Source: a virus
IMG/VR virus record: IMGVR_UViG_3300034064_001073
Coordinates: 15,874 to 79,873 of that record
Direction: 5' to 3' (one strand)
DNA length: 64,000 nucleotides
Below the pieces are notes generated by a model, which saw only the letters and a program-made list of their open reading frames with translations, did no database searches and was not told the origin of the DNA. The position numbers were made by a program, and so were the translations under genes. Of the stretch, positions 49,110 through 64,000 are shown in pieces. How positions within the stretch are numbered: the stretch's first letter is position 1; each line of letters opens with the position of its first letter.

Positions 49110-50417
49110 TTAGTCATCATCAAAGTCTACTCCATCTGCGTCTACAGTATTATCTCTTATTAAACTATTAATCTTGTTTAATGCAGAAGACATTTTTGTC
49201 ATAGTTGAACTAACACTCTCAGACTTAGTAGCTTCAATCTTAGCTCTCGCATTAATCTTAGCTTCTGGACTGCTTAGAAGTTCTTTCATTAATTGACTAC
49301 GCATCTTTTGAAAGCGTTCTTTTAATGCGAAAGCAGGGTGCTCCTTCATCGCAGTCTTAACGGGATTACCATGTAAGTCACTACTTAACACAGCCTCCTG
49401 CATTAAATCCCTACCTTCACCAAAGCTATCCCCTTGACTTAATAGCATATTAACACGTATCTCATAGATATCCAACTCAGCAAGTTTAGTTGCTAGGCTA
49501 ATTATAGTAGGAGTAATGTGATTTAAGTTATGAAAATTCTCACTACAGTATTGCTTAACCTTAACCTGAAGAATGCTTGCTTCTACAGGGCAAGGTTGTA
49601 ACAAGGGAAATTTACTAGCAAGAAGATCAGCTGTGCCGTTGTCCCTTTTAACAACAAACCAACATGAACTACGGATAGGGCAACTCTCATATCCTTTACA
49701 AATAAGCGGCACACTAGCATAAGTACCATGTTTAATTGCAGCTAGATGAGACCTCATTCTTGCGGCACTCTGTGGAGTTATATGTAGATCCTTATATAAG
49801 TCAGGATCACTGCCAAGAAAAGCACCTAAGCTACTATTAGAAAAAAAGCTATTTACATCTACGTTGCTATTATCACTAGTATTTAATGCAGACTGGAAAG
49901 CGTCACGTAAGCTGATACTAGTAGAAGAAGTATTATCAAGGGGAGCAGCTCTTTCCAGTAATGTTTCATCGTTATCTAAAAGCTCACCTACTCTGTCAAG
50001 TAGAACTTGGGTATTAGCCTCCACGCCGCCGAGACCATTAGCGTTCCTGTTGCCTGAAATCATACTAGAATCTTTTAATAGACTATTAGTCTTATCGAAG
50101 GACTTGTCTTCCTTTATCTCTAAGTCCTTGGTTGGTAGTCCTTTTGCTGTAGCTGCGAGAGAGACACTATCATCCTCTAATGCTTGAAGATCAAAGGGCA
50201 TCTCCTCATCTCTACTAGAAAACTCCAATCTATTAGAAAGCTTATCAGAGAGAAGATAAGGATCTATAACTTGTCCTGTTACAGTACCAGTATAAGTAGG
50301 CTGAGAAAGCCGCGCCGCATTCTTATAAGGATTATCGGCTCCACGCCCTGCACTGTTATCGTGCGAGGATCTAGGTTTATTCCTATTAGCCTTGTTAATA
50401 TCATTATAGTGTGCCAA
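49110..50417 (-). CDS. Putative terminase small subunit (TTG start)
   Basis: First gene of the operon. Cys cluster CKGYESCPIRSSC...CPVE is followed by a helical HPAFALKERF...LMKELLSSPEAK segment resembling the P27-type TerS C-terminus. Confidence 0.5.
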   Translation of the reverse strand: MAHYNDINKANRNKPRSSHDNSAGRGADNPYKNAARLSQPTYTGTVTGQVIDPYLLSDKLSNRLEFSSRDEEMPFDLQALEDDSVSLAATAKGLPTKDLEIKEDKSFDKTNSLLKDSSMISGNRNANGLGGVEANTQVLLDRVGELLDNDETLLERAAPLDNTSSTSISLRDAFQSALNTSDNSNVDVNSFFSNSSLGAFLGSDPDLYKDLHITPQSAARMRSHLAAIKHGTYASVPLICKGYESCPIRSSCWFVVKRDNGTADLLASKFPLLQPCPVEASILQVKVKQYCSENFHNLNHITPTIISLATKLAELDIYEIRVNMLLSQGDSFGEGRDLMQEAVLSSDLHGNPVKTAMKEHPAFALKERFQKMRSQLMKELLSSPEAKINARAKIEATKSESVSSTMTKMSSALNKINSLIRDNTVDADGVDFDDD

Positions 50418-50950
50418 GAATTCCTCTTCGTTACTATTTATCTCTAGTAATTAAACTTTCCTATAAGAGCTGATACCATAAATTTTGCTGTATAGGGACA
50501 AAAGAAAAGCCTTATATATTATTTAAGGAAAGCTCTATATATATTTTAGGAAAAAAGTCTAAAGAAAAGCTAGGGGAAAAGGGGGTATAGGTCTAGGATA
50601 AAAGTCCTTTATCTCTGTAACTTATATTTATTTTTATATTTTTATGGAAAAGAGTGGGTACTTATACTCGTGGGCCCCTATACTTACCCTACCCCTATCC
50701 CGTTTTAGCCCACCCCCTTTAAAGACTATGTACCAGGGGATGAGGGTCTTTCCAACTCTCACCAATTGCTAGCATCCCGCTAGCTTTGGACATTACCCCA
50801 CAAGGGTAGTAAGGAACGCCATGTGCACGCTCGCACAAGCCCCCACCCCCACCACACACACCTCCATCACACACACTACCATGAATAACATTCATAACAA
50901 CAATAACAACACCATCACGAATAACGATAACGTCAACATCAACGAAGAGA
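50418..50950. other. Divergent strand-switch region with a composition boundary
   Basis: Gene orientation flips here. An AT-rich tract is followed by C-runs and a G-free C/A tract (50840-50882), and GC and codon usage change abruptly. Confidence 0.7.
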
Positions 50951-50955
50951 AGAAA

Positions 50956-51762
50956 ATGAAGATCGACCGCGAAGATAAGTTCATGTTCTCTATCATTATG
51001 GTACTTGTTACGTTCATTACGACACTGTTCATCTATTCGGTGAGTATCACTCGTGAACATGCGGCGGCTATGTATGAGAAAGAAGTCCGTCAGGCTGTCT
51101 GGGTAGCCGATAGCGACTATGCAGAGGTTGTGATGCAGTTGGAAGAGTACCTTGACGAAAAGTTTCATGCAGAAAACAATATCCACCATGGTATTGGCCC
51201 TGTTGCAACCAAAGGCGATAAGGGCCCTCTTGAGGACACTTGGGACTGTACCGCTTGGAAGTGGAAGGGTAAAGTCTATACGGCAGAACACTGTGTACGT
51301 GAAAACTACGAGGAAACTATGGGTGACGTAGTTGTATCGGCTGATAAGTACCCCCATGCCATCAAAGAGGATCTATATGACATCGGTATTGAATGTAGCA
51401 CGGATCTGCGCTGGTGGGGTGCGAATACGGACATGTGGGGCTACATTCCTTTTGAGCAGGCATTTAATCACTATAAGCAAGTAGTGAATGGTGCAACTGT
51501 TACTAATCAGCGCTTCATCTGTGCTGCTAGCATCAGCCTTGAGATTGCTCCTGTGGTTGGCGACTCTGGTGGCCCGCTTATGGCTGGTGATGAAGTCATT
51601 GGCTTCGTCAGCTATGGTGAGAGCCCGAAGTGGGCTGACAGTGATATGCTTGAGAACTTTGACATCAAATATAAGGACGCCCTATATGGTGACCTTACAT
51701 ATTGCTGGGGTGTACTGGATAGAAGCCAGGATACGATCAGCAAGTCGGAACAGTCCAACTAA
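50956..51762 (+). CDS. Membrane-anchored trypsin-like serine protease
   Basis: YTAEHCV (His), YDIGI (Asp) and GDSGGPL (Ser) triad motifs, plus an N-terminal TM helix. Start is uncertain (ORF is open from 50821). Confidence 0.85.
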   Translation: MKIDREDKFMFSIIMVLVTFITTLFIYSVSITREHAAAMYEKEVRQAVWVADSDYAEVVMQLEEYLDEKFHAENNIHHGIGPVATKGDKGPLEDTWDCTAWKWKGKVYTAEHCVRENYEETMGDVVVSADKYPHAIKEDLYDIGIECSTDLRWWGANTDMWGYIPFEQAFNHYKQVVNGATVTNQRFICAASISLEIAPVVGDSGGPLMAGDEVIGFVSYGESPKWADSDMLENFDIKYKDALYGDLTYCWGVLDRSQDTISKSEQSN

Positions 51763-57700: not shown

Positions 57701-58292
57701 GAAGTTCTTCGACCTTGATTACGTCCTCGATCTGCGGCGCGAACCTCAGAACCAGCATGACAACAATGCGATTGCCCTGTATGCTCAAAGGGACAAAGTC
57801 GGATACGTGCCTAAGGATCTTGCAAAAATGCTTGCCCCCATGATAGATGCTAATCCTAGACAGAAGTACAACTTCCAAGCAGTAGTCACTGGTTGGGATT
57901 CTGGCTATCCTCGTTTTGCCTTGGAATTTGTAACCGTTCATCAGGGTCGTAAAGGAAAAGAAGATGGCCGCCAGTACCAGTACTGGGCAGTTGACAAGAA
58001 TGAAGCAAAAGACTACGGCTCCTTTGTTGACACAGCAATCGTCTCCCTCTCGACTATGATCTCCACCAAGGAAAATCCTGCGCGTTGGGACGAAATGAAG
58101 ACTCAGTACTCTAAGGTATCTGGCTACTGGTTTGACCTCTGCGATGGAGATACGGAAAGCCACAATAAGTTCTTTGCTTGGTTGGAAAACCAGGGACTCA
58201 CTGGTATCAACTTCCTTGGCGGCGAAGATAACAAGTATGTCGTCACCTTTGGAACTAAGGTGATTATGTCGCGCAAGAGCAATGTAGGCTAA
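51762..58292 (+). CDS. 2176-aa YonO/cellular-RdRP-like single-subunit RNA polymerase fused to SLOG (YspA/DUF1273-like), an unknown domain and HIRAN
   Basis: YDGTVYVS...R...KGLVKGMV...SEIK fits barrel 1 and ATRIP...LFP...ASEGGDDDDLY fits barrel 2. IAFTGHRP...TGGALGVD...RNRWMVD...WDGSPSGT is SLOG. LRREPQNQHDNNAIAL...VGYVP is HIRAN. There is a strong internal GGAGG-ATG at 52961-52973. Confidence 0.75.
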   Translation: MLNNMKNNININKVNLMYKFLALAFAIFFAVEFAMFDIVEVMKNVLIAVALVATGAFAAMLKNNIALTGKENPAMGIERLACTARIFVASVIAAIFPVVTAQHAVEIHFIFGFIRSIVESVALQSKSFRVKMAKVIKARGRRMAKAKNWTVIRYQRWLVKWGMANKAKKAKMKKSNNSFVVKVSKMSREQRRRLAHQWRKKAGIKHVNKVVLPSDKKEPMFIYSEGSKIPGGRKSSPPAFIHVATTIAARKRNNNGGKNVKTGPAFNTRARILAQLDRKKNEKTRPQNEIKARIAARKAARRHVRANSPILAMIAAIAITGRDLADSLMGQSLTELLQGGPAFVIFGIIAVICGLALLNWANQEEKKGDNGDETGKFRLYSGPFVGQGENMEDDNTQTAKEVKMGMIENSNNVLRAILEKLTGVGNEMTSPMAKSDREVKTYGRTLDALGYEETALTILHKGFRKMVIRDLTDDDVRALEGKFIWKTENCMVIVRDSQQYEMPNECFTALMKAVVVAGQVPDSKKVVTLQEVNKYMGSLLWARASVVSIKLSEILVMSKAVSDLYDGTVYVSATFAAQAGWQGYAIRRILTAKGLVKGMVIVLPDTYFPAGISIIASEIKQHLSLRNDNGKAIVMQPQGDGHSGSARTLSMQLWAMIMGVFVGSKRFDAFASDSYKDAMNGLDKATEKMLDPAEEGEDGRDKLLAEAARQHGFNPVAAFRSYGMALAQGLTKAFNPKKVNLAPKSANGKVLAPEGYPMMIPWMALADAFTNAKQDVPAWMAEKLEVAIVIEKALMKRANGAIPVLVSNLKMLDAAKVNGIRQYVIAAIATRIPTGKTSGIEVLLFDADEFGTRPVDIGPGLVGRKSKDVEFWLFPNQETLAFKMASEGGDDDDLYKFLTGKLLEIARDGLVWRDSILEETSESKDKETKLRNFLKKFAAEMRIDKGKLTAMMDMPFAKKFAAGKVMVGWPSLLGVKKVSDGYRIEIEEVNEDAIFMTVNSRQDIEAQMDLFAKTMVANNDSPFSAAIGTVAQSHKFALGILAGHVVLPEHIRHIAKDWALFVVRTILLSDMVDACNKGKGYKKAAEALQELNWAWGWLCYQIAKVEDAKVVCPSQYLVSVPPMARDLFKARHAETYELDGKTRKPGSMLANLFSYHEKLGNAVEALATSQHDRMEFAATVSVMADAVSIPMGGAPSAQAFVAPIWKKVWSESGRLKTYLDGLQWLSERKEEGNDDVKANQRYMAELNDITVWAAHAEFDMTVLAALVDANPKASKAEIEAMFKIAKLAMIYVNGFKALHVPDNSIKIIMDKDGKFVASGGVAGYLLPTCGSSSCVGKDGEAEFVGGSEILIEWMMDPAVIAAVAARKAVDGDFKFVTFVMKTDAFGDVVNGKRPLLYTEDDFTGKTVMEILGMPGVYLAGNTDDEAHEMQSTFLAGIADDVKKKRKDTLVAMKRAIADAKARAAEAKTQNKHKLYAQLMQQAAEAQDKLTAFAASSFAELLGAFKIRSVEENVKGTAVVETIDTFLWQDAKKQAYAQYHNTFVIVKFESDSDPEGDKVEVVAPVEVVAAPVVPAVVAPIVAPVQKDKGDLLGRLNRIHNVKEPAVVATPAVTPVYRIAFTGHRPEKIGGYDESSPMRVAVKNAIADALKRAIAKHGESKEIIVVTGGALGVDTDAAREAYKLGLKFIVARPCSDHGENFKADAKVAYQKMLKIAHKVVLVNEQPYDLAGKADCLHARNRWMVDNCDAVVAIWDGSPSGTSNCVAYAKKANRPMIIINPNDLMGNEPTPPSDPKPAPETAPSVRSTTLGLPNRLADQVEVEAKLGLPEDGRSFTGEIQTPNGNTIASKYTRIVYGDHGPYIELDAASVDLSKWQIRQKGSQAWYDEARLDGVMLYIQNRDVSTLPNPPAGAKSTRNNRPEGYADYQPGMLYVDPFKVKIVPAATVSEVPAVKNERKDYPISGHTYREIFQENGKYSAELAEKFFDLDYVLDLRREPQNQHDNNAIALYAQRDKVGYVPKDLAKMLAPMIDANPRQKYNFQAVVTGWDSGYPRFALEFVTVHQGRKGKEDGRQYQYWAVDKNEAKDYGSFVDTAIVSLSTMISTKENPARWDEMKTQYSKVSGYWFDLCDGDTESHNKFFAWLENQGLTGINFLGGEDNKYVVTFGTKVIMSRKSNVG

Positions 58293-58490
58293 TCTCTTTG
58301 CGACTAGAATGGTAAGCAACAAGCAGGCCATTTTTTTCTTCTTTCCTAAAATAGTCCAGATACTCCGCTGCCTTTGTTCGTTCCTCCGCGAAGGCCTATA
58401 TGTACCTTGTAATGCCTGCACCCGCCTGCATAGCCTCCTTCGTCGTCCAGATCTAGTGAGCACTTTTGCTCCTCTTGTACGGTGTCCCCC

Positions 58491-58673
58491 ATGGTCAATC
58501 CCGTTTTTGATGTCCTTACGAAGCCCCAACTCCTTGCGCTGCGGGCGATGCTCGTACACCAGGCCAGCCTCGACGAACTTGAGACCGCGGCCTACATCGA
58601 GACCTGCAAGACCCTCGTCGCAGAGATCGATGAGATGATGGAGCATGCCGAGATGTACTGCTCTGAAGTCTAA
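58491..58673 (+). CDS. Small early hypothetical protein
   Basis: Between promoter copy 1 and a terminator; codon usage like its neighbours. Start is 58482 or 58491. Confidence 0.6.
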   Translation: MVNPVFDVLTKPQLLALRAMLVHQASLDELETAAYIETCKTLVAEIDEMMEHAEMYCSEV

Positions 58674-58685
58674 CGCATCCTCTCA

Positions 58686-58717
58686 ACCCTCGGCTTCGGC
58701 TGGGGGTTTCGCTTTCT
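58686..58717 (+). terminator. Intrinsic terminator
   Basis: ACCCTCGGC-TTCG-GCTGGGGGT followed by a T-rich tail. Confidence 0.8.
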
Positions 58718-58915
58718 CACTCCGCTCCCCGGCCACAAGGCTCCAGCTGCAGCAGCCCTTCGGGAACCAGGCTCCGCTTCACAGTGGGGTAACTCCAGCA
58801 ACCAGGCCCTTCGGCCGCGACAAGGACCGTCAGCAGAGGGAAAAGAGGCCGGACTCCGCTGAATAACCAGATGGCTTGTGGCAACTAGGGGTCTTACGAG
58901 GCTCCTTCGTCGCCC

Positions 58916-59157
58916 AAAGCAGCGGATGGTGGCTGCCGCTACCCGTATCAGAGAAGGCCTGTCGGTCTCTGGTATGTATCAGACAGGGGCGGTTCCCAGT
59001 CCGCTTAACACAAAAACTGGCTGTCATCCCTTTAGGATGGCATGTTAATAAACGTCCCCTCTTGGACGTGTTCCTGGTAGTGGTAGTCCTACCTACTGCG
59101 TACCAGGATAGAGAGGTAAAGCCCCAGCACGGTAGGACGTGTTGGGGTTTTATTTTT
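58916..59157 (+). ncRNA. Structured multi-pseudoknot ncRNA, copy A
   Basis: Promoter-to-terminator unit with no credible ORF. Hairpin-loop CCTGTC pairs with GACAGG, CCAGT with ACTGG, and GTCCTAC with the terminator loop GTAGGAC. Homologous to copies B and C. Confidence 0.7.
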
Positions 59158-59221
59158 CTCACTCCGCTCAATAACCAGATGGCTCATACAACCAGGGGTC
59201 TAACGAGCTCCTTCGTCGCTT

Positions 59222-59555
59222 AAGTACGTGAGGTAGTTGCGCACCTCTTAGACATGCTCACAACCCTGGGTGAGCGTGAGGAGCCTAGCGAGGCAGGCAC
59301 AGAGGGAGAGTAGACTGGGCTCAATCCACCAGTAGATGCCACACCAATAGTTGTCGGGCATCAAAGCACTAGAAAGGGCCTGTCGGGTTCTAGTGTACAG
59401 TAGACAGGTGCGGTTGCCAATTCCGCATTACGATTTGGATAAGCCTCCTCTTAGGCTGATAGACTCGTAACTAGTAGTGACCCTGCTAGTGTCCTAATAC
59501 GAGATAGAGAAGTAGAGCCCCTGACACAGTAGGACGTGTTGGGGGTTTTATTTTT
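59222..59555 (+). ncRNA. Structured multi-pseudoknot ncRNA, copy B
   Basis: Same core as A with different stem sequences, an extra 5' domain of about 140 nt, and a near-identical terminator. Confidence 0.7.
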
Positions 59556-59623
59556 GTTACTCCGCTATATAACTAGATTACTAGTAAGTGTATAGTGGTT
59601 TGTTAGGGGCTCCTTCGTCGCCC

Positions 59624-59773
59624 AAAGCACTGGGCGTTGACGCTCTGCCATCTCCGTTGGTAGAGACTAGTTCTAATAGACGGGGAGTCCCAAGTCGTCC
59701 TTACGGGCTTGGATAAGACTATCAACAGAAGGACAGATTCCCACTACTAGGCCGGTAGTGGGTTTCTTTTTTT
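59624..59773 (+). ncRNA. Short pseudoknot ncRNA, copy C
   Basis: CTCTGCCA/TGGTAGAG stem whose loop TCTCCGT pairs with ACGGGGA; CCAAGT pairs with GCTTGG. Shares TTACG...TTGGATAAG with B and ends in the terminator CCCACTAC/GTAGTGGG plus a T-run. Confidence 0.6.
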
Positions 59774-59835
59774 GGCCTCCTTCGTCGGCCAGAGAACATG
59801 AGGCACTTTCGCCTCTTGGTCCATTGGAGGACAGC

Positions 59836-60048
59836 ATGAAAGCAGGCAAGTATCACTCCTACGACTGGCGCACAGAGCGGGATGCGGATGCTAATAGGAG
59901 CGTCTTCAGGGCCGCATGGAAGGCAAAGTTCCCTGGGGTCGTGCCGCAGTTCGCCATCATCTTGGATGACGGCAGTTGCCACTGGTGGAACGAGTGGCCG
60001 GATGGGCGGACTCGCCGCCTCCCGCCCGGCACATTCAACATCGAGTAA
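59836..60048 (+). CDS. Small early hypothetical protein
   Basis: GGAGG SD and ATG at 59836; lies between promoter copy 5 and the terminator at 60055-60087. Confidence 0.7.
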   Translation: MKAGKYHSYDWRTERDADANRSVFRAAWKAKFPGVVPQFAIILDDGSCHWWNEWPDGRTRRLPPGTFNIE

Positions 60049-60283
60049 AGATAGACCCCCTGACTTCGGTTGGGGGTTTTTCTTTTCTCACTCCGCTATA
60101 GACCTACAAGGCTCCAGCTCTCAGGCTCTTCGACGGTCGGCAGGTAGGAACCCAACAGCAAAAAGAGGCGAAAATATAGACTCCGCTATGGACCGGAAAG
60201 ACTTTCATCAACTAGTAGTGTAACGGCCTCCTTCGTCGGTTAGGTATGATGAGGTAATGTTGCCTCTGCATTGGAGAATGAAC

Positions 60284-60466
60284 ATGGATAGCGTTTTCTT
60301 TCTTGACAGCCTGAACAACGTATGGCAGACCTGTGGCGCTGACGATAACGATGCTGTGGCATTCGGGCCGAGGGGTTGCGCACGCCGCGTGCCTGCCGCC
60401 TGCTACAACGTTTACCAGAACGACGAGATCGAGGCTGGATGGCAGCTCATCGAGATCACTGGCTAA
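60284..60466 (+). CDS. Small early hypothetical protein
   Basis: GGAG SD; lies between promoter copy 6 and the terminator at 60473-60506. Confidence 0.65.
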   Translation: MDSVFFLDSLNNVWQTCGADDNDAVAFGPRGCARRVPAACYNVYQNDEIEAGWQLIEITG

Positions 60467-60613
60467 TGTGTGACCCTCTGGCTTCGGTCGGAGGGTTTCG
60501 CTTTTCTCGGCTCCGATGACCGGACGGATGGTTCCAGCTCCCAGTAGTCTTACGAGCCTCCTTCGTCGGCCAGAGCATCGGGCAATTGCGCCCCTATTTG
60601 ACTGGAGAATGTC

Positions 60614-61036
60614 ATGAACAGTGTGAACATGGTTGGCCTCCTTACGGCCAGTTCGAAGGTTGAGGGTGACTTTCTCTTCATCGTCCTGGACAACCAGGGC
60701 GAGATGCCGACTCTCGGTTTCAAGGGTAAGCAGAGAGAGGCGGTCGAGAAGTGGGGTGAGCCCAAGCGCATGGTGTCGGTGTCGGGCGCATTGCGTACCG
60801 TCATCAACGGCAACCAGAAGATGACCTTCGTGGATGTCGCCTATAGTCGCTTCCTTGACAGCCAGAAGAAGGTTGTTGAGGAAACGAAGGTTGCGGCCCC
60901 AGCAAAGGTTGCGGCCCCTGCGAAGGTTGCTGCTCCTGCGAAGGCTCCTGCAAAGGCTCCTCCGAAGGTCTCTGCAAAGGCTCCTGCCAAGGCTCCTGCG
61001 ACGGCTGCTCCAGTCGACAACGACGTGCCCTGGTAG
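60614..61036 (+). CDS. ssb: Single-stranded DNA-binding protein with an APAK-repeat linker
   Basis: MNSVNMVGLLT...VSVSGALRT...RFLDS fits the SSB OB fold; acidic-aromatic tail DNDVPW (compare DDIPF). Has its own promoter copy and terminator (61044-61078). Confidence 0.8.
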   Translation: MNSVNMVGLLTASSKVEGDFLFIVLDNQGEMPTLGFKGKQREAVEKWGEPKRMVSVSGALRTVINGNQKMTFVDVAYSRFLDSQKKVVEETKVAAPAKVAAPAKVAAPAKAPAKAPPKVSAKAPAKAPATAAPVDNDVPW

Positions 61037-61279
61037 ACTCGTGACCCTCTGGCTTCGGTCGGAGGGTCTTGCTTTTTGGGCTCCGCTCCCCGGCCACAAG
61101 GCTAGACCTACAACAGCCCTTCAGGAACAAGGCTCCGCTATAGACCTACAAAGTTCCAGCTCCCGTGGCTCTTCGGTCTGCGGAGGACCCGTCAGCAGAG
61201 AAAAAAGTGGCGAAAAATATAGGACCTCCTTCGTCGGTTAGGTTTTGTGAGGAATAGTCCTCGGAGTTTGGAGTATGTC

Positions 61280-61441
61280 ATGAAGTACGAGAAGGTTTCC
61301 CTTGAAGACTGCTATGGCGTTTCGACTGGCGGAGAAGATGACATGATCGAGAAGATCGATAACAAGAGCGAAGGAATGTGGGATCACCGCCCAGACCGTG
61401 TCGACTCGGAGTACATGGACTTCGAAGAGTACGAAGAGTAA
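61280..61441 (+). CDS. Small, very acidic early protein
   Basis: GGAG SD; 53 aa rich in D/E; terminator at 61448-61469. Confidence 0.65.
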   Translation: MKYEKVSLEDCYGVSTGGEDDMIEKIDNKSEGMWDHRPDRVDSEYMDFEEYEE

Positions 61442-61529
61442 AGAAATGGCCCGAAAGGGTTTTTTCTTTCCCCAGACTCCGCTCAATGTCTCGGATACTC
61501 GAACGATAAAGGGGCCTCCTTCGTCGGCC

Positions 61530-61959
61530 ACATTTATTGGGTTTTGACACTGGTCAGGCCAAAGATTTAAGGCGTCGAGTAGGTTACATTGCGAACTCTA
61601 GGGGATGTAAACCCTATTGCTCGTACTGCAAGACGTCACCTTCTAATCCTCTAGAAAAATCATAAGCGCGCCTACCGCTTATGGGAACCTAGAGGTGTCA
61701 GGGTTGCAAACCTGGCTATAAAGATAGGCTGGCTGCTAGTGGATCCCTGCCACTAGTGGACAAGATGAACATGGGGCTTTGTCTACTAGGTAGGACCCCT
61801 GCCGCTAGTAGCAAGATAGACATGGGGTGGTTACTAGTTCGCTAGTAACGACTGGGAAGGGGTTCGCACGCTAGCAAATAAGACGACCCGTACCCTTTTG
61901 ATTAGTCTGGTGACGCAACGGACCACACGCGGCTATGGGTTCGATTCCCATATGATTGA
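61530..61959 (+). ncRNA. About 430-nt structured RNA with a tandem pseudoknot repeat and a 3' tRNA-like element
   Basis: No ORF; dense inverted repeats; duplicated unit at 61733-61776 and 61783-61827; T-arm TATGGG-TTCGATT-CCCATA at 61934-61952. Confidence 0.6.
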
Positions 61960-61988
61960 ATTACTTTACCCGTCCTAAGGAGGACACA

Positions 61989-62447
61989 ATGAACATGAAT
62001 GAGCGTCTTGAAGATTTCGTAGAGAAGATGGGAATGCGATTGGGGTTCTTGTGGGATACTACTGCCAGCTTGACCTGGAGTGGTAACTTTGGGCCGACTG
62101 TCGAGAGGGTAGAGAAGGAAGGTGAGACGATGATGGGCGATTTCTACCTGACCAATGGATTGCTGCACAGCGATCACTGCGGACACAAGGCGACGTTCAC
62201 CATCAGTGTCCCCGGCCAGCACCCAGATGGGTTCATCATGAACTGGCTGAAGATCGAGATCACGAACCTTGACTGGAATGGCGACGGCATCACGCACGAT
62301 GATCCGACTTACTCCCTGCCTGAGTTGAGTTCCAAGTACAACAAGATGGAGTTCAGGGAGGGCTTGAAGTTGGCGGAAACGTCTGCTCAGATTATCGTGG
62401 ACTTTGAAATGGTCTTGGAGGATGTCAAGGCCTCCTTCGTCGGTTAG
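61989..62447 (+). CDS. Early hypothetical protein
   Basis: AAGGAGG SD and ATG at 61989. Promoter copy 10 overlaps its last codons. Confidence 0.75.
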   Translation: MNMNERLEDFVEKMGMRLGFLWDTTASLTWSGNFGPTVERVEKEGETMMGDFYLTNGLLHSDHCGHKATFTISVPGQHPDGFIMNWLKIEITNLDWNGDGITHDDPTYSLPELSSKYNKMEFREGLKLAETSAQIIVDFEMVLEDVKASFVG

Positions 62448-62580
62448 GTATCGTGACTAGTAGGTCAACAGTCTGCAACCTGCCTGTCGGTAGGATAACC
62501 TATCAGATGTCATGTCTGGTAGCCACAAAGGCTGAATCACTTCCTTATGGTACAAAACTGGTTCGAATCCAGTTAGGAAG
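62446..62580 (+). ncRNA. Structured leader ending in a minimal tRNA-like element
   Basis: Several hairpins, then CTTCCT...AACTGG-TTCGAAT-CCAGTT-AGGAAG at 62540-62580. Confidence 0.5.
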
Positions 62581-62607
62581 ACTTTACCCCCTTATATAGG
62601 TGACAAG

Positions 62608-62811
62608 ATGAAACATGTGCCCGGACATAGTTCGATGGATGAGCAGGCTATGGAGACTGTAATCTCTCATGGGAAGTTTCTTCTTGAGAGAGCAAATGCA
62701 GTACTACATTTATATCCCCAGCTCCAAGAGTATAGGGATGCACTGGTAGAGATGCAGAAGTATGCCGAGAAGGCAATGGATAATGGACACTTCCCCGATT
62801 CCGACCTCTAA
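62608..62811 (+). CDS. Small hypothetical protein
   Basis: AGGTGA SD; 67 aa. Confidence 0.65.
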   Translation: MKHVPGHSSMDEQAMETVISHGKFLLERANAVLHLYPQLQEYRDALVEMQKYAEKAMDNGHFPDSDL

Positions 62812-62829
62812 CGTCCTTAGGAGGACAAC

Positions 62830-63024
62830 ATGTACAATGCGACAATTTCGAAGAATCAAGAGACTGGTAGCGCGTTTCTCTCGGTCTACAACGAAGAGGG
62901 AAACCTTGTCATAGGTATCGACGTCCGTGCTGATGGTAGCATGGAGGTCCACAATCACGATGGTGTTGCTGGTTTCGACCACATCGCCTGCATCCATGAC
63001 GTTCTTTCACAGATCGCCAAGTAG
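62830..63024 (+). CDS. Small hypothetical protein
   Basis: AGGAGG SD; 64 aa. Confidence 0.7.
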   Translation: MYNATISKNQETGSAFLSVYNEEGNLVIGIDVRADGSMEVHNHDGVAGFDHIACIHDVLSQIAK

Positions 63025-63032
63025 GTTACAAG

Positions 63033-63491
63033 ATGAATATGAATACCGTTAAGGATATGGACAAGATCTTGGGAATCCTGGATGCCGAAGTGGCAAAGAG
63101 GAAGATTCCTTTTGATGCGATTCCAGAGAGAACAGGGGCGGAGTATCGTGCCCTAGCCGAAGACCATGAAGAGTATGTTGCTCTTCTTGCAAGAGAGAGG
63201 AAGGTAATCAATGCCTACTTCAATGCCGTTCAGATGCAGGAGTGGGCACAGAACCACAAGCGCTGGATACAGACGGGATTGAACGGTTATACTACCCATG
63301 AGTTGAGCCCTGTTGGCAAAGAGACCCTGAAGAAGTTCATCAGCAAAATAGTTGAGGAAACCTGGTGGGATGCCAATGAGGACCGCCTTATGGCAGAATT
63401 CGAAAGTTCCCGCCAGTACCTCGGTGACGACGACCGCAACTTTGAGTGGTACATTGAGAGAGAATATGAGACTTACCTTCGCAACCTTTAA
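63033..63491 (+). CDS. Hypothetical protein
   Basis: 152-aa ORF in a tightly packed operon. Confidence 0.7.
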   Translation: MNMNTVKDMDKILGILDAEVAKRKIPFDAIPERTGAEYRALAEDHEEYVALLARERKVINAYFNAVQMQEWAQNHKRWIQTGLNGYTTHELSPVGKETLKKFISKIVEETWWDANEDRLMAEFESSRQYLGDDDRNFEWYIEREYETYLRNL

Positions 63492-63502
63492 CGAGAAAGA
63501 CA

Positions 63503-63649
63503 ATGAAGCATATCAATCTTAGAGTGTTTGTCGTAAACAAGGGTATCATTATTAGTGAGAGACACAATGATGTCCAGACTGCGATGAATCGGGGCGAGAG
63601 TCTTGCTTCCAGCTTGGGTGGTCGATGGACTATCACAATTAACAAGTAA
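63503..63649 (+). CDS. 48-aa hypothetical protein not in the ORF track
   Basis: MKHINLRVFVVNKGIIISERHNDVQTAMNRGESLASSLGGRWTITINK, starting 11 nt after the previous stop. Confidence 0.55.
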   Translation: MKHINLRVFVVNKGIIISERHNDVQTAMNRGESLASSLGGRWTITINK

Positions 63650-64000
63650 ACAGAGATTGGGGAAAACGCGTTATCCCCCCAATAGGTAACACTGGTTGAT
63701 CCTTTAAAAAGGCCAGAGGTTTGGTAACCCAGAAAATCCTGCCAAGATCTAGTCCGCTAGATTGGGAGCACAAACAACTGTCCTAGTTCAGAAAATAACT
63801 AGGTGGTACGTCTGGTAATCCAGAACGCAAGGGCCTCTTCTTCTAGCAATAAAAGGAGGGGCCCTTTAACTTTCCCTCAACCCCGGAGACGATGTGTTTG
63901 ACAAGACGGCATTTGTTGTTTTCGTAATCTTGCTATATGGGACTAGACTACTAGTCGTAGATTTCCCAGTGATACTATCAACGCTGGATCTACTACTATG

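Follow-up and report, generated by a model that had tools for sequence, protein, structure and literature searches.

A modular structured RNA with a tRNA-like end in a narrow lineage of uncultured lake phages

Several stable RNAs end in tRNA-like handles, among them MALAT1 and NEAT1 with their mascRNA and menRNA (PMC8457004, PMC9777231) and GUT15 with its tRNA-like molecule (PMC6152437). A pseudoknot domain lies upstream of a tRNA-like structure in the 3′ untranslated regions (UTRs) of tobacco mosaic virus (TMV), brome mosaic virus (BMV) and turnip yellow mosaic virus (TYMV) (PMC5723415, PMC8127992), and a tRNA-like domain is also part of the bacterial Y RNA YrlA (PMC4201824). Among phages, the crAss-like phage phi14:2 makes two abundant and persistent early long non-coding RNAs (ncRNAs) from long intergenic regions, their function unassigned (bioRxiv 10.1101/2020.03.07.982082), and about 8,500 short candidate structured RNAs have been catalogued from IMG/VR (PMC10690425). 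Here we describe positions 61530-61959, plus strand, of a 64,000-nucleotide stretch of viral DNA (the window), which is the last 64 kb of a 79.9-kb IMG/VR record with an estimated completeness of 46%. This segment is a phage ncRNA of about 370 bases that belongs to a family without an Rfam entry: a body of pseudoknots and hairpins followed by a tRNA mimic that lacks an anticodon arm (TLS1). That the RNA is real, structured and expressed, and that it carries a tRNA mimic, we hold to be very probable. A full-text literature search found no description of it; the catalogue of IMG/VR candidates may contain pieces of this RNA.

An earlier reading of the same DNA, hereafter the original prediction, had proposed a large structured RNA with a duplicated pseudoknot unit at this place, and every complementarity that it listed is present. 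The 438-nt stretch folds at −152.9 kcal/mol compared with −132.5 ± 5.8 for dinucleotide shuffles (z −3.53), none of 100 shuffles equals it, and compensatory changes occur in every module tested, so the large structured RNA is borne out and the concern that its folding might be no better than that of shuffles falls away. The plus strand of the stretch has no open reading frame (ORF) longer than 42 aa. No Rfam family matches the RNA when the whole window is searched at gathering scores, tmRNA, GOLLD, ROOL and tRNA included, and at E<=10 over 60500-64000 just two chance snoRNA matches appear, with GOLLD and ROOL (RF01998, RF03087) silent at both settings; ARAGORN reports 0 tRNA or tmRNA genes in the window. 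The original prediction had been reminded of tmRNA and GOLLD-type RNAs, had found the tmRNA hallmarks missing and had named these very searches as checks, and their silence agrees with that description. What emerges is a string of exchangeable, independently folding modules followed by a self-contained tRNA mimic, and not one closed fold (Table 1).

Table 1. Coordinates of the RNA, its tRNA-like ends and the adjoining elements in the window.
Feature	Positions	Strand	Description
Motif CCTCCTTCGTCGG, copy	61515..61527	+	just 5′ of the RNA; motif repeated in the early region
Leader hairpin TGAC-ACTG-GTCA	61545..61556	+	read from sequence; competes with long-range TGACAC/GTGTCA
Module A, H-type pseudoknot	61571..61637	+	closing helix GGCGTC 61571-76 / GACGTC 61632-37; hairpin TTACAT 61584-89 / ATGTAA 61605-10, whose loop pairs twice with the 3′ tail (TAGGG 61599-603 x CCCTA 61612-16, and TGCGA x TCGTA)
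Module B, nested hairpins	61648..61729	+	outer helix CCTCTAG 61648-54 / CTAGAGG 61689-95; inner hairpin CATAAGCG 61661-68 / CGCTTATG 61676-83; third hairpin CAGG...CCTG 61699-714
Module C, copy 1	61733..61776	+	10-bp hairpin, 7-nt loop ATCCCTG; TCCC 61744-47 x GGGG 61773-76
Module C, copy 2	61784..61827	+	loop ACCCCTG; CCCC 61796-99 x GGGG 61824-27; model R1 59 bits
Hairpin D, GTTACTAG-TTCG-CTAGTAAC	61830..61849	+	C-type stem with tetraloop cap, no pseudoknot; read from sequence
Module E	61850..61898	+	G/C-clamped hairpin GGGAAGGGG 61854-62 / CCCGTACCC 61887-95, then U tract; in the minimum-free-energy fold
TLS1, anticodon-arm-less tRNA mimic	61899..61959	+	61 nt; acceptor TGATTAG 61899-905 / ATGATTG 61952-58; mini D hairpin GTC-TGGT-GAC, short connector, T-arm ATGGG-TTCGATT-CCCAT 61935-51, discriminator; CCA not encoded
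RNA2	62453..62581	+	structured body of ~90 nt, then TLS2; behind a motif copy and ahead of an ORF
TLS2	62540-62581		acceptor CTTCCTT 62540-46 / TAGGAAG 62574-80; T-arm ACTGG-TTCGAAT-CCAGT

Viral contigs were searched for relatives with the C-terminal part of a 2176-aa protein encoded in the window and with DNA patterns derived from the RNA. The search gave five distinct relatives (L002, L003, L004, L009 and L137; over this RNA L003 is identical to L005 and L009 to L012, and L137 and L138 share a BLAST pattern), and all of them carry an RNA at the equivalent place that ends in TLS1. They are close, with 80-83% identity over the fragment of the 2176-aa protein, and two come from genomes that are complete, at 174-176 kb. 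The homologue search with covariation analysis that the original prediction had called for can thus be made, and modules A, B and C and the TLS1 acceptor all covary.

For module A, 98.9% of the cells in the alignment (A6) are paired, six pairs are changed on both sides and none of 500 shuffles reaches the score; the double changes include both pseudoknot helices, and in L004 the whole pseudoknot helix TGCGA/TCGTA is replaced by TAGTTCTA/TAGAACTA. Module B behaves similarly (alignment A7: 97% of cells paired, five pairs changed on both sides, 0/500 shuffles reaching the score), and in L004 it has taken up an insertion of about 110 nt at the tip of its third hairpin. A further loop-tail pairing in module B, GCCTA 61670-74 with TAGGC 61725-29, is possible and shows one-sided changes only. 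Module C is the duplicated pseudoknot unit of the original prediction, of about 48 nt, in which a GGGN some 25 nt 3′ of the loop, beyond an A-rich linker, pairs with four of the loop's bases, the downstream strand being CATGGGG in the copies of the window. Both copies are where they had been predicted, and the pairing of loop and tail covaries across 13 copies in four phages, with 90.7% of cells paired as against 30-63% for slid partners and 0/500 shuffles. The outermost pseudoknot pair (13:47) is C-G in five copies, G-C in five and U-G in one; the remaining two cells are misaligned rows, which by eye read G-U and C-G. About 20 of the 182 module C cells are G-U pairs, which on the opposite strand would be A-C mismatches, and this fixes the RNA strand as plus. 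Hairpin D is identical in L009 and occurs as a longer-loop variant in one RNA contig (X22), and module E is present in L009, with other modules in its stead in L002, L003, L004 and L137.

The order and number of these modules differ from phage to phage. In the window the body reads A-B-C-C-D-E ahead of a short TLS1, and L009 has A-B-C-C-C-C-D-E ahead of a long one. The body of L003 is A-B-C-B-C-C-C plus a hairpin, again with a long TLS1; L004 has an extra 5′ part, A, B with its insertion, C, B, C, C and other modules before a short TLS1; L137 is reduced to A-B-C plus a hairpin before a very long TLS1; and L002 contains no A, B or C but other modules, and a short TLS1. The body thus holds one to four C units and one or two B units in the relatives that have them, while TLS1 and its position stay constant as module number and content vary among close relatives.

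Tandem pseudoknot units of this size in a phage early region, joined by A-rich linkers and numbering between one and four in close phages, raise the possibility of a type III antitoxin mimic akin to the pseudo-ToxI of phiTE, in which the units would silence a host abortive-infection RNase of the ToxN, CptN or AbiQ type. The repeats of type III antitoxins are near-identical. This stands in contrast to the 13 C units, which have a mean column identity of about 73% and show compensatory drift, the two of the window differing in both stem and loop; moreover, the folds of modules A, B, D and E are unrelated ones, an Rfam search at E<=10 brings up no antitoxin family, the ten flanking ORFs have no Pfam or PADLOC toxin or defence match, and long RNA contigs (described below) mean that the array is not present solely as single units. 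An antitoxin mimic, which would be one version of a decoy, is therefore quite improbable in our estimation, a cognate toxin in the host being conceivable all the same.

The second part of the RNA, TLS1, is constant where the body is not. The T-arm that the original prediction had placed after the tandem pseudoknots is present and turns out to be part of a covarying acceptor/T minihelix. The 5′ strand of the acceptor lies 46 nt before its 3′ strand, all pseudoknots lie upstream of TLS1, and the seven acceptor positions, made up of six pairs and a constant G.A, stack on the 5-bp T stem. With 90% of cells paired compared with 25-50% when slid, the acceptor has three pairs changed on both sides, all of them from L002 (TAGTTGG/ACAACTA), and L003 and L004 turn a U-G pair into C-G. 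The base before the stem and the discriminator (61898:61959, a possible extra pair) also covary, being U-A in four sequences and C-G in one, so that an 8/5 acceptor/T arrangement is possible. Both the T-arm ATGGG-TTCGATT-CCCAT, with its canonical T-loop, and the TGGT of the GG-containing D region, which in TLS1 reads TC-TGGT-GACG, are invariant in five sequences, and the constant core of TLS1 is accordingly the acceptor/T minihelix plus the GG-containing D region. A D-stem TGGT/ACCA was considered as a family feature and rejected, as it is found only in the short form of TLS1. L003, L009 and L137 have an unpaired D region and, inserted between it and the T-arm, a long covarying helix; the relatives' hairpin at the anticodon position has no 7-nt loop, and in the window the anticodon arm is absent. 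The insertion at the anticodon position is largest in L137 (L137:3214-3402), where about 150 nt form a long covarying helix capped by three hairpins, one of which is T-arm-like (AAGGG-TTCAATC-CCCTT).

This topology bears on whether the RNA could be tmRNA-like, or otherwise an aminoacylatable tRNA mimic, one that takes up an amino acid and has ribosomes or translation factors as its target. Pseudoknots adjoin a tRNA-like domain, in L003, L009 and L137 the unpaired D region, with a long helix or an insertion of 150 nt where the anticodon would be, has the topology of the tmRNA domain, and the D and T strings match tRNA-Sec, as set out below, together with the possible 8/5 arrangement. Nonetheless the tmRNA models of ARAGORN and Rfam are negative in the window, ARAGORN finds no tmRNA in L137 or L138 either, and the tRNA-like domain does not contain the pseudoknots. 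The pair at 3:70, A-U in four sequences but G-C in L002, is not the G3:U70 of tmRNA; L002 departs from the window at the first pair, at pairs 2:71 and 3:70 and at the discriminator. Since the first pair and the discriminator vary among relatives, there is no constant synthetase identity set, and neither an encoded CCA nor a tag reading frame is seen. By its letters TLS1 would appear to lack what marks an aminoacylatable viral tRNA-like structure, namely a constant identity set and a 3′ CCA, and we find a charged mimic hardly credible.

As to where TLS1 came from, its strings TAGTCTGGTGACGC and TGGGTTCGATTCCCAT recur in true tRNA-Sec genes, the match to the D-arm and the T-arm of a tRNA-Sec extending over 14 and 16 consecutive bases, and it shares TGGTGACGCA(A/G)CGGAC and the T-arm with tRNA-Cys genes, with 15 of 16 bases alike at the junction of D-arm and anticodon stem. 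Because these D-region and T-arm strings are common to tRNA-Sec and tRNA-Cys, TLS1 looks like a co-opted Cys/Sec-type tRNA without its anticodon arm, kept for its top half. Neither ARAGORN nor Rfam (RF00005) calls it a tRNA, and true tRNAs in the related loci score 53-75 bits. Among 185,579 species genomes there is no exact match to its 3′ half; a looser pattern matched 43 genomes, with a tRNA-Sec gene at the match in six of the seven loci examined, and a metagenome scan with an over-loose pattern gave, among the matches examined, mostly tRNA-Cys and tRNA-Sec genes and none with the RNA body. An attP or host-tRNA-fragment site was considered and rejected on the absence of an exact match among those 185,579 genomes.

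The resemblance to tRNA-Cys and tRNA-Sec genes minus the anticodon arm, in a group of phages whose members have as many as seven intact tRNA genes, could also mean that TLS1 is a decaying tRNA gene with a fortuitously folding spacer, or a tRNA-fragment attachment site, of no function at the RNA level. Such decay is very hard to reconcile with compensatory changes that involve the two acceptor strands and all modules tested, with the missing exact match for the 3′ half, or with the presence of the RNA in RNA libraries, and we give this explanation next to no weight.

A second and smaller RNA with its own tRNA-like end lies about 0.5-1 kb downstream in the relatives as well as in the window (RNA2, ending in TLS2), and both units share the order structured RNA, tRNA-like end, ribosome-binding site and ORF. 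RNA2 is 84-93% identical in all relatives; in its alignment with TLS2 (A4) 96.8% of cells are paired and seven pairs are changed on both sides (0/500 shuffles). TLS2 combines a 6-7-bp acceptor with a 5-bp T stem, the same minimal design as TLS1, so that both have the makings of a tRNA-like processing handle (an acceptor/T stack of about 12 bp and a T-loop/D-loop elbow), and in L009 a hairpin is inserted in TLS2 at the site equivalent to the TLS1 insertion. Within RNA2 the hexamer GGTAGG has two possible partners, CCTGCC upstream or CCTA downstream, which suggests alternative folds. A(C/T)TTTACCC occurs within a few bases 3′ of both mimics (61960-61975 and 62582-62592), and a small hairpin, GTCCT-AAGG-AGGAC, which recurs at 59818 and 62812, contains the ribosome-binding site of the following ORF.

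Transcription of the RNA was assessed with Logan contigs from four freshwater metatranscriptome runs, belonging to four studies, that were compared with positions 58000-64000. RNA contigs of 350, 327 and 233 nt cover 61566-61875, along with several variants that have other C-unit arrangements. The only other cover in the region consists of 42-nt pieces at 60932-61006 from three RNA runs, which were disregarded as probably low-complexity cross-matches on a coding repeat; the uncovered parts (flanking ORFs, TLS1 and RNA2) were not counted as evidence of absence. The RNA body is therefore present in RNA libraries at a level that assembles, which fits a stable and abundant RNA, and the worry that the predicted element might not be transcribed is not borne out. 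The 16 letters before 61566 in the longest contig (X20) differ at one base from the leader of L137 and so place the start of the contig, on L137, no more than 13 nt downstream of the repeated motif described below. The two longest contigs, from two studies, end 12-20 nt past 61875, just 5′ of the TLS1 acceptor, and their ends carry loose letters. The DNA runs that contain the RNA stretch are lake-water metagenomes.

Our preferred reading, with a probability of roughly 0.55 for the statement as a whole, is that this is a stable phage RNA that tRNA-processing enzymes of the host cut out of its transcript at the mimic and that then acts as a multivalent decoy or platform. The RNA would be transcribed within the early-region transcript together with the downstream ORF, and host tRNA-maturation enzymes would recognise the 12-13-bp acceptor/T stack of TLS1 and its GG/T-loop elbow. 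RNase P would cut on the 5′ side of TLS1 (at about 61898/61899) and an RNase Z-type or similar activity on the 3′ side, and these cuts would free a compact, nuclease-resistant RNA of about 350-370 nt from the mRNA, with its 3′ end tucked in hairpin E. The freed pseudoknot beads would then form a multivalent platform or decoy for an RNA-binding protein of host or phage or for a nuclease, a role that would explain the fast duplication, loss and swapping of units. Taken by itself, processing at the tRNA mimic is, on this model, about an even bet, and the role of the beads as decoy or binding platform is put forward tentatively, as a possibility about which we are more doubtful. Bolder still, and unlikely as it stands, is the idea of an RNA weapon: early-made, expandable pseudoknot beads of triple-helix type, cut free by host tRNA enzymes at a co-opted tRNA-Cys/Sec top half, that would soak up a defence nuclease or a global RNA-binding protein, with an arms race swapping and multiplying the beads.

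Several observations weigh against release and a decoy role. The contig ends in front of TLS1 give a weak hint only, since de Bruijn contigs also break where strains diverge; the RNA contigs stem from relatives that are 90-95% alike, and RNA libraries can contain DNA. One contig (X23) continues for 167 nt from a C unit, and the first part of this continuation is L003-like and extends to where the TLS1 acceptor starts, so uncut RNA may exist too. In the L003, L004 and L009 types the RNA begins directly after the stop codon of the upstream ORF with no separate motif, and there its 5′ end may arise by processing, or the RNA may act in cis. Modules D and E are without covariation support and are common only to the window and L009, and no conserved single-stranded motif clearly marks a protein site in the body. 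The family is limited to one narrow lineage of uncultured lake phages of about 175 kb, six sequences in all, so that the covariation rests on few independent events, and the module copies within one RNA are paralogues.

Some of these points lend themselves to a different explanation, in which the folded RNA stays on the neighbouring mRNAs as a cis-acting intercistronic or leader element that controls their stability or translation, for example by blocking 5′-end-dependent RNases, with the tRNA-like end as a structural cap. The start right behind a stop codon and the contig that runs up to the acceptor are both to be expected of such an element, and terminators are missing from the intervals that separate TLS1 from the ORF at 61989 and that ORF from RNA2. 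What follows TLS1, though, is not one and the same gene throughout the family, the window and L137 having one there, L003 another, L009 a third, and L002 and L004 a fourth, which argues against a leader dedicated to one gene; the body of L002 has been swapped wholesale with TLS1 kept; and the RNA contigs lie on the body and not on the flanking ORFs, although this last point is weak. We consider a purely cis-acting element unlikely, and continue to favour an RNA that is released at its mimic.

Large and intricately folded RNAs of unassigned role are rare, and the discovery of one has tended to bring new biology to light; the present RNA is expressed at a level sufficient for assembly from lake metatranscriptomes, and it puts module-by-module evolution on show, with duplication, loss and swapping, and with hairpin tips and the anticodon position as sites of insertion. 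A tRNA mimic that lacks an anticodon and stands where an ncRNA meets an mRNA is known from eukaryotic nuclear RNAs and from organelles, and is not established for phage operons. Should the processing model be true, host tRNA enzymes would serve phages for punctuating their early transcripts and for making stable RNAs; should the decoy model be true, it would add an RNA-only counter-measure with adjustable valency.

On the 5′ side, the RNA is preceded by a copy of the motif CCTCCTTCGTCGG, which occurs ten times in the window where 0.67 copies are expected, always on the plus strand and between 58434 and 62443, and which is presumed to be a phage promoter or 5′ boundary signal. L137 has a variant, CCTCCTGCGTCGG, at the equivalent place, and in L004-type relatives the motif is altogether absent. 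Several copies overlap the final codons of an ORF. The original prediction had seen a long-range outer helix whose 5′ strand lies between motif and module A, TGACAC 61545-50 with GTGTCA 61695-700. The complementarity exists, but it is not conserved, since the leaders differ among relatives and those of L003, L009 and L137 contain no TGACAC; a closing helix was therefore ruled out as a conserved feature. In the window itself the local leader hairpin is at least as likely, and L003 and L009, whose leaders differ from it in sequence, have a hairpin of their own (AGACCT-GAGT-AGGTCT).

The RNA lies in the plus-strand block that runs from about 50.7 kb to the end of the window and opens with the 2176-aa protein. 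This block has a G+C content of about 53%, the minus-strand structural genes of the window one of about 39%, and the step between the two (window ~50400-51000) coincides exactly with the switch of strand. Beyond the large protein, 5.7 kb are taken up by small ORFs, terminators, repeated motifs and stretches free of ORFs, and near-identical hairpins resembling intrinsic terminators (for example GACCCTCTGGCTTCGGTCGGAGGGTC plus a T run) punctuate this region at 58687-61076; over the same interval a second repeated motif, ACTCCGCTATAGACCTACAAGGCT, is present in seven copies. A 140-aa ORF (60614-61036) contains 12- and 18-nt tandem repeats at 60867-61016. True tRNA genes occur elsewhere in the group: a tRNA-Arg lies about 2-3 kb further downstream of RNA2 in relatives, and a complete 176-kb relative (G002, which comprises L139, L140 and L142) has seven intact tRNAs (Met, Lys, Pro, Thr, Tyr, Asn and Arg), all on the same strand as both mimics. 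Just 5′ of its tRNA-Tyr there is a T-arm-like site, GGGTTCAAGTCCCG (L139:2990-3103, that is G002:38789-38902), on which ARAGORN and Rfam are silent and which may be another degenerate tRNA or mimic.

The phage itself has no cultured relative at the DNA level, as blastn against 50,697 phage records gives 0 matches; its capsid protein has a distant likeness to those of large myophages, and the 2176-aa protein has no sequence match to solved RNA polymerases or to any phage record. More distant relatives of that protein (L006-L008) have neither the T-arm pattern nor module C, and scans of viral contigs with module A and C patterns returned, besides the known relatives, chance matches in coding or AT-rich DNA (L135, L136, L143, L146 and others). 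Outside this lineage, pattern matches are ordinary tRNAs or chance.

How, then, does this RNA compare with the systems described so far? The phi14:2 ncRNAs offer an analogy only, nor does the capsid protein, distantly like those of large myophages, mark the present phage as crAss-like. Type III antitoxin arrays (ToxI, CptI, TenpI, AntiQ and the pseudo-ToxI of phiTE) resemble it in their tandem pseudoknot units of about 36-50 nt and in the expansion of copy number in phages; those arrays have a toxin RNase adjacent or targeted and are cut to single units, whereas here diverged units stand among mixed modules with no toxin nearby. With tmRNA (RF00023 and its permuted forms) it has in common a tRNA-like domain in which the GG-containing D region is unpaired, together with a canonical T-arm and the presence of several H-type pseudoknots, but its termini do not form the acceptor stem and its pseudoknots precede the tRNA-like domain. 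YrlA is likewise a modular ncRNA in which an anticodon-less mimic of T-arm, D-arm and acceptor is fused to another module, and some YrlA RNAs are phage-encoded; there, however, a Ro-binding helix forms from the termini and an rsr (TROVE) gene lies alongside, whereas the present RNA has no conserved terminal helix and no Rfam match. A link to Ro and Y RNAs was rejected, given that TROVE (PF05731) is absent from four records of the phage group, two of them complete, in a search to which control genomes respond.

Two parallels come from outside bacteria and their phages. In plant-virus 3′ UTRs, as in this RNA, pseudoknots stand in a row directly 5′ of a viral tRNA mimic; there, the tRNA-like structure forms the 3′ end of an RNA virus genome, is aminoacylated and makes its acceptor by way of a pseudoknot, whereas TLS1 belongs to a DNA phage, is internal to its transcript and has a plain acceptor helix whose identity positions are not conserved. 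Handles of the mascRNA and menRNA type are eukaryotic and nuclear, and their cleavage by RNase P has been demonstrated; TLS1, which has no sequence relation to them, sits in a phage operon where it also precedes an mRNA, and its cleavage is predicted. What joins them is a design, an anticodon-poor acceptor/T mimic placed directly 3′ of a long structured ncRNA with a protective end.

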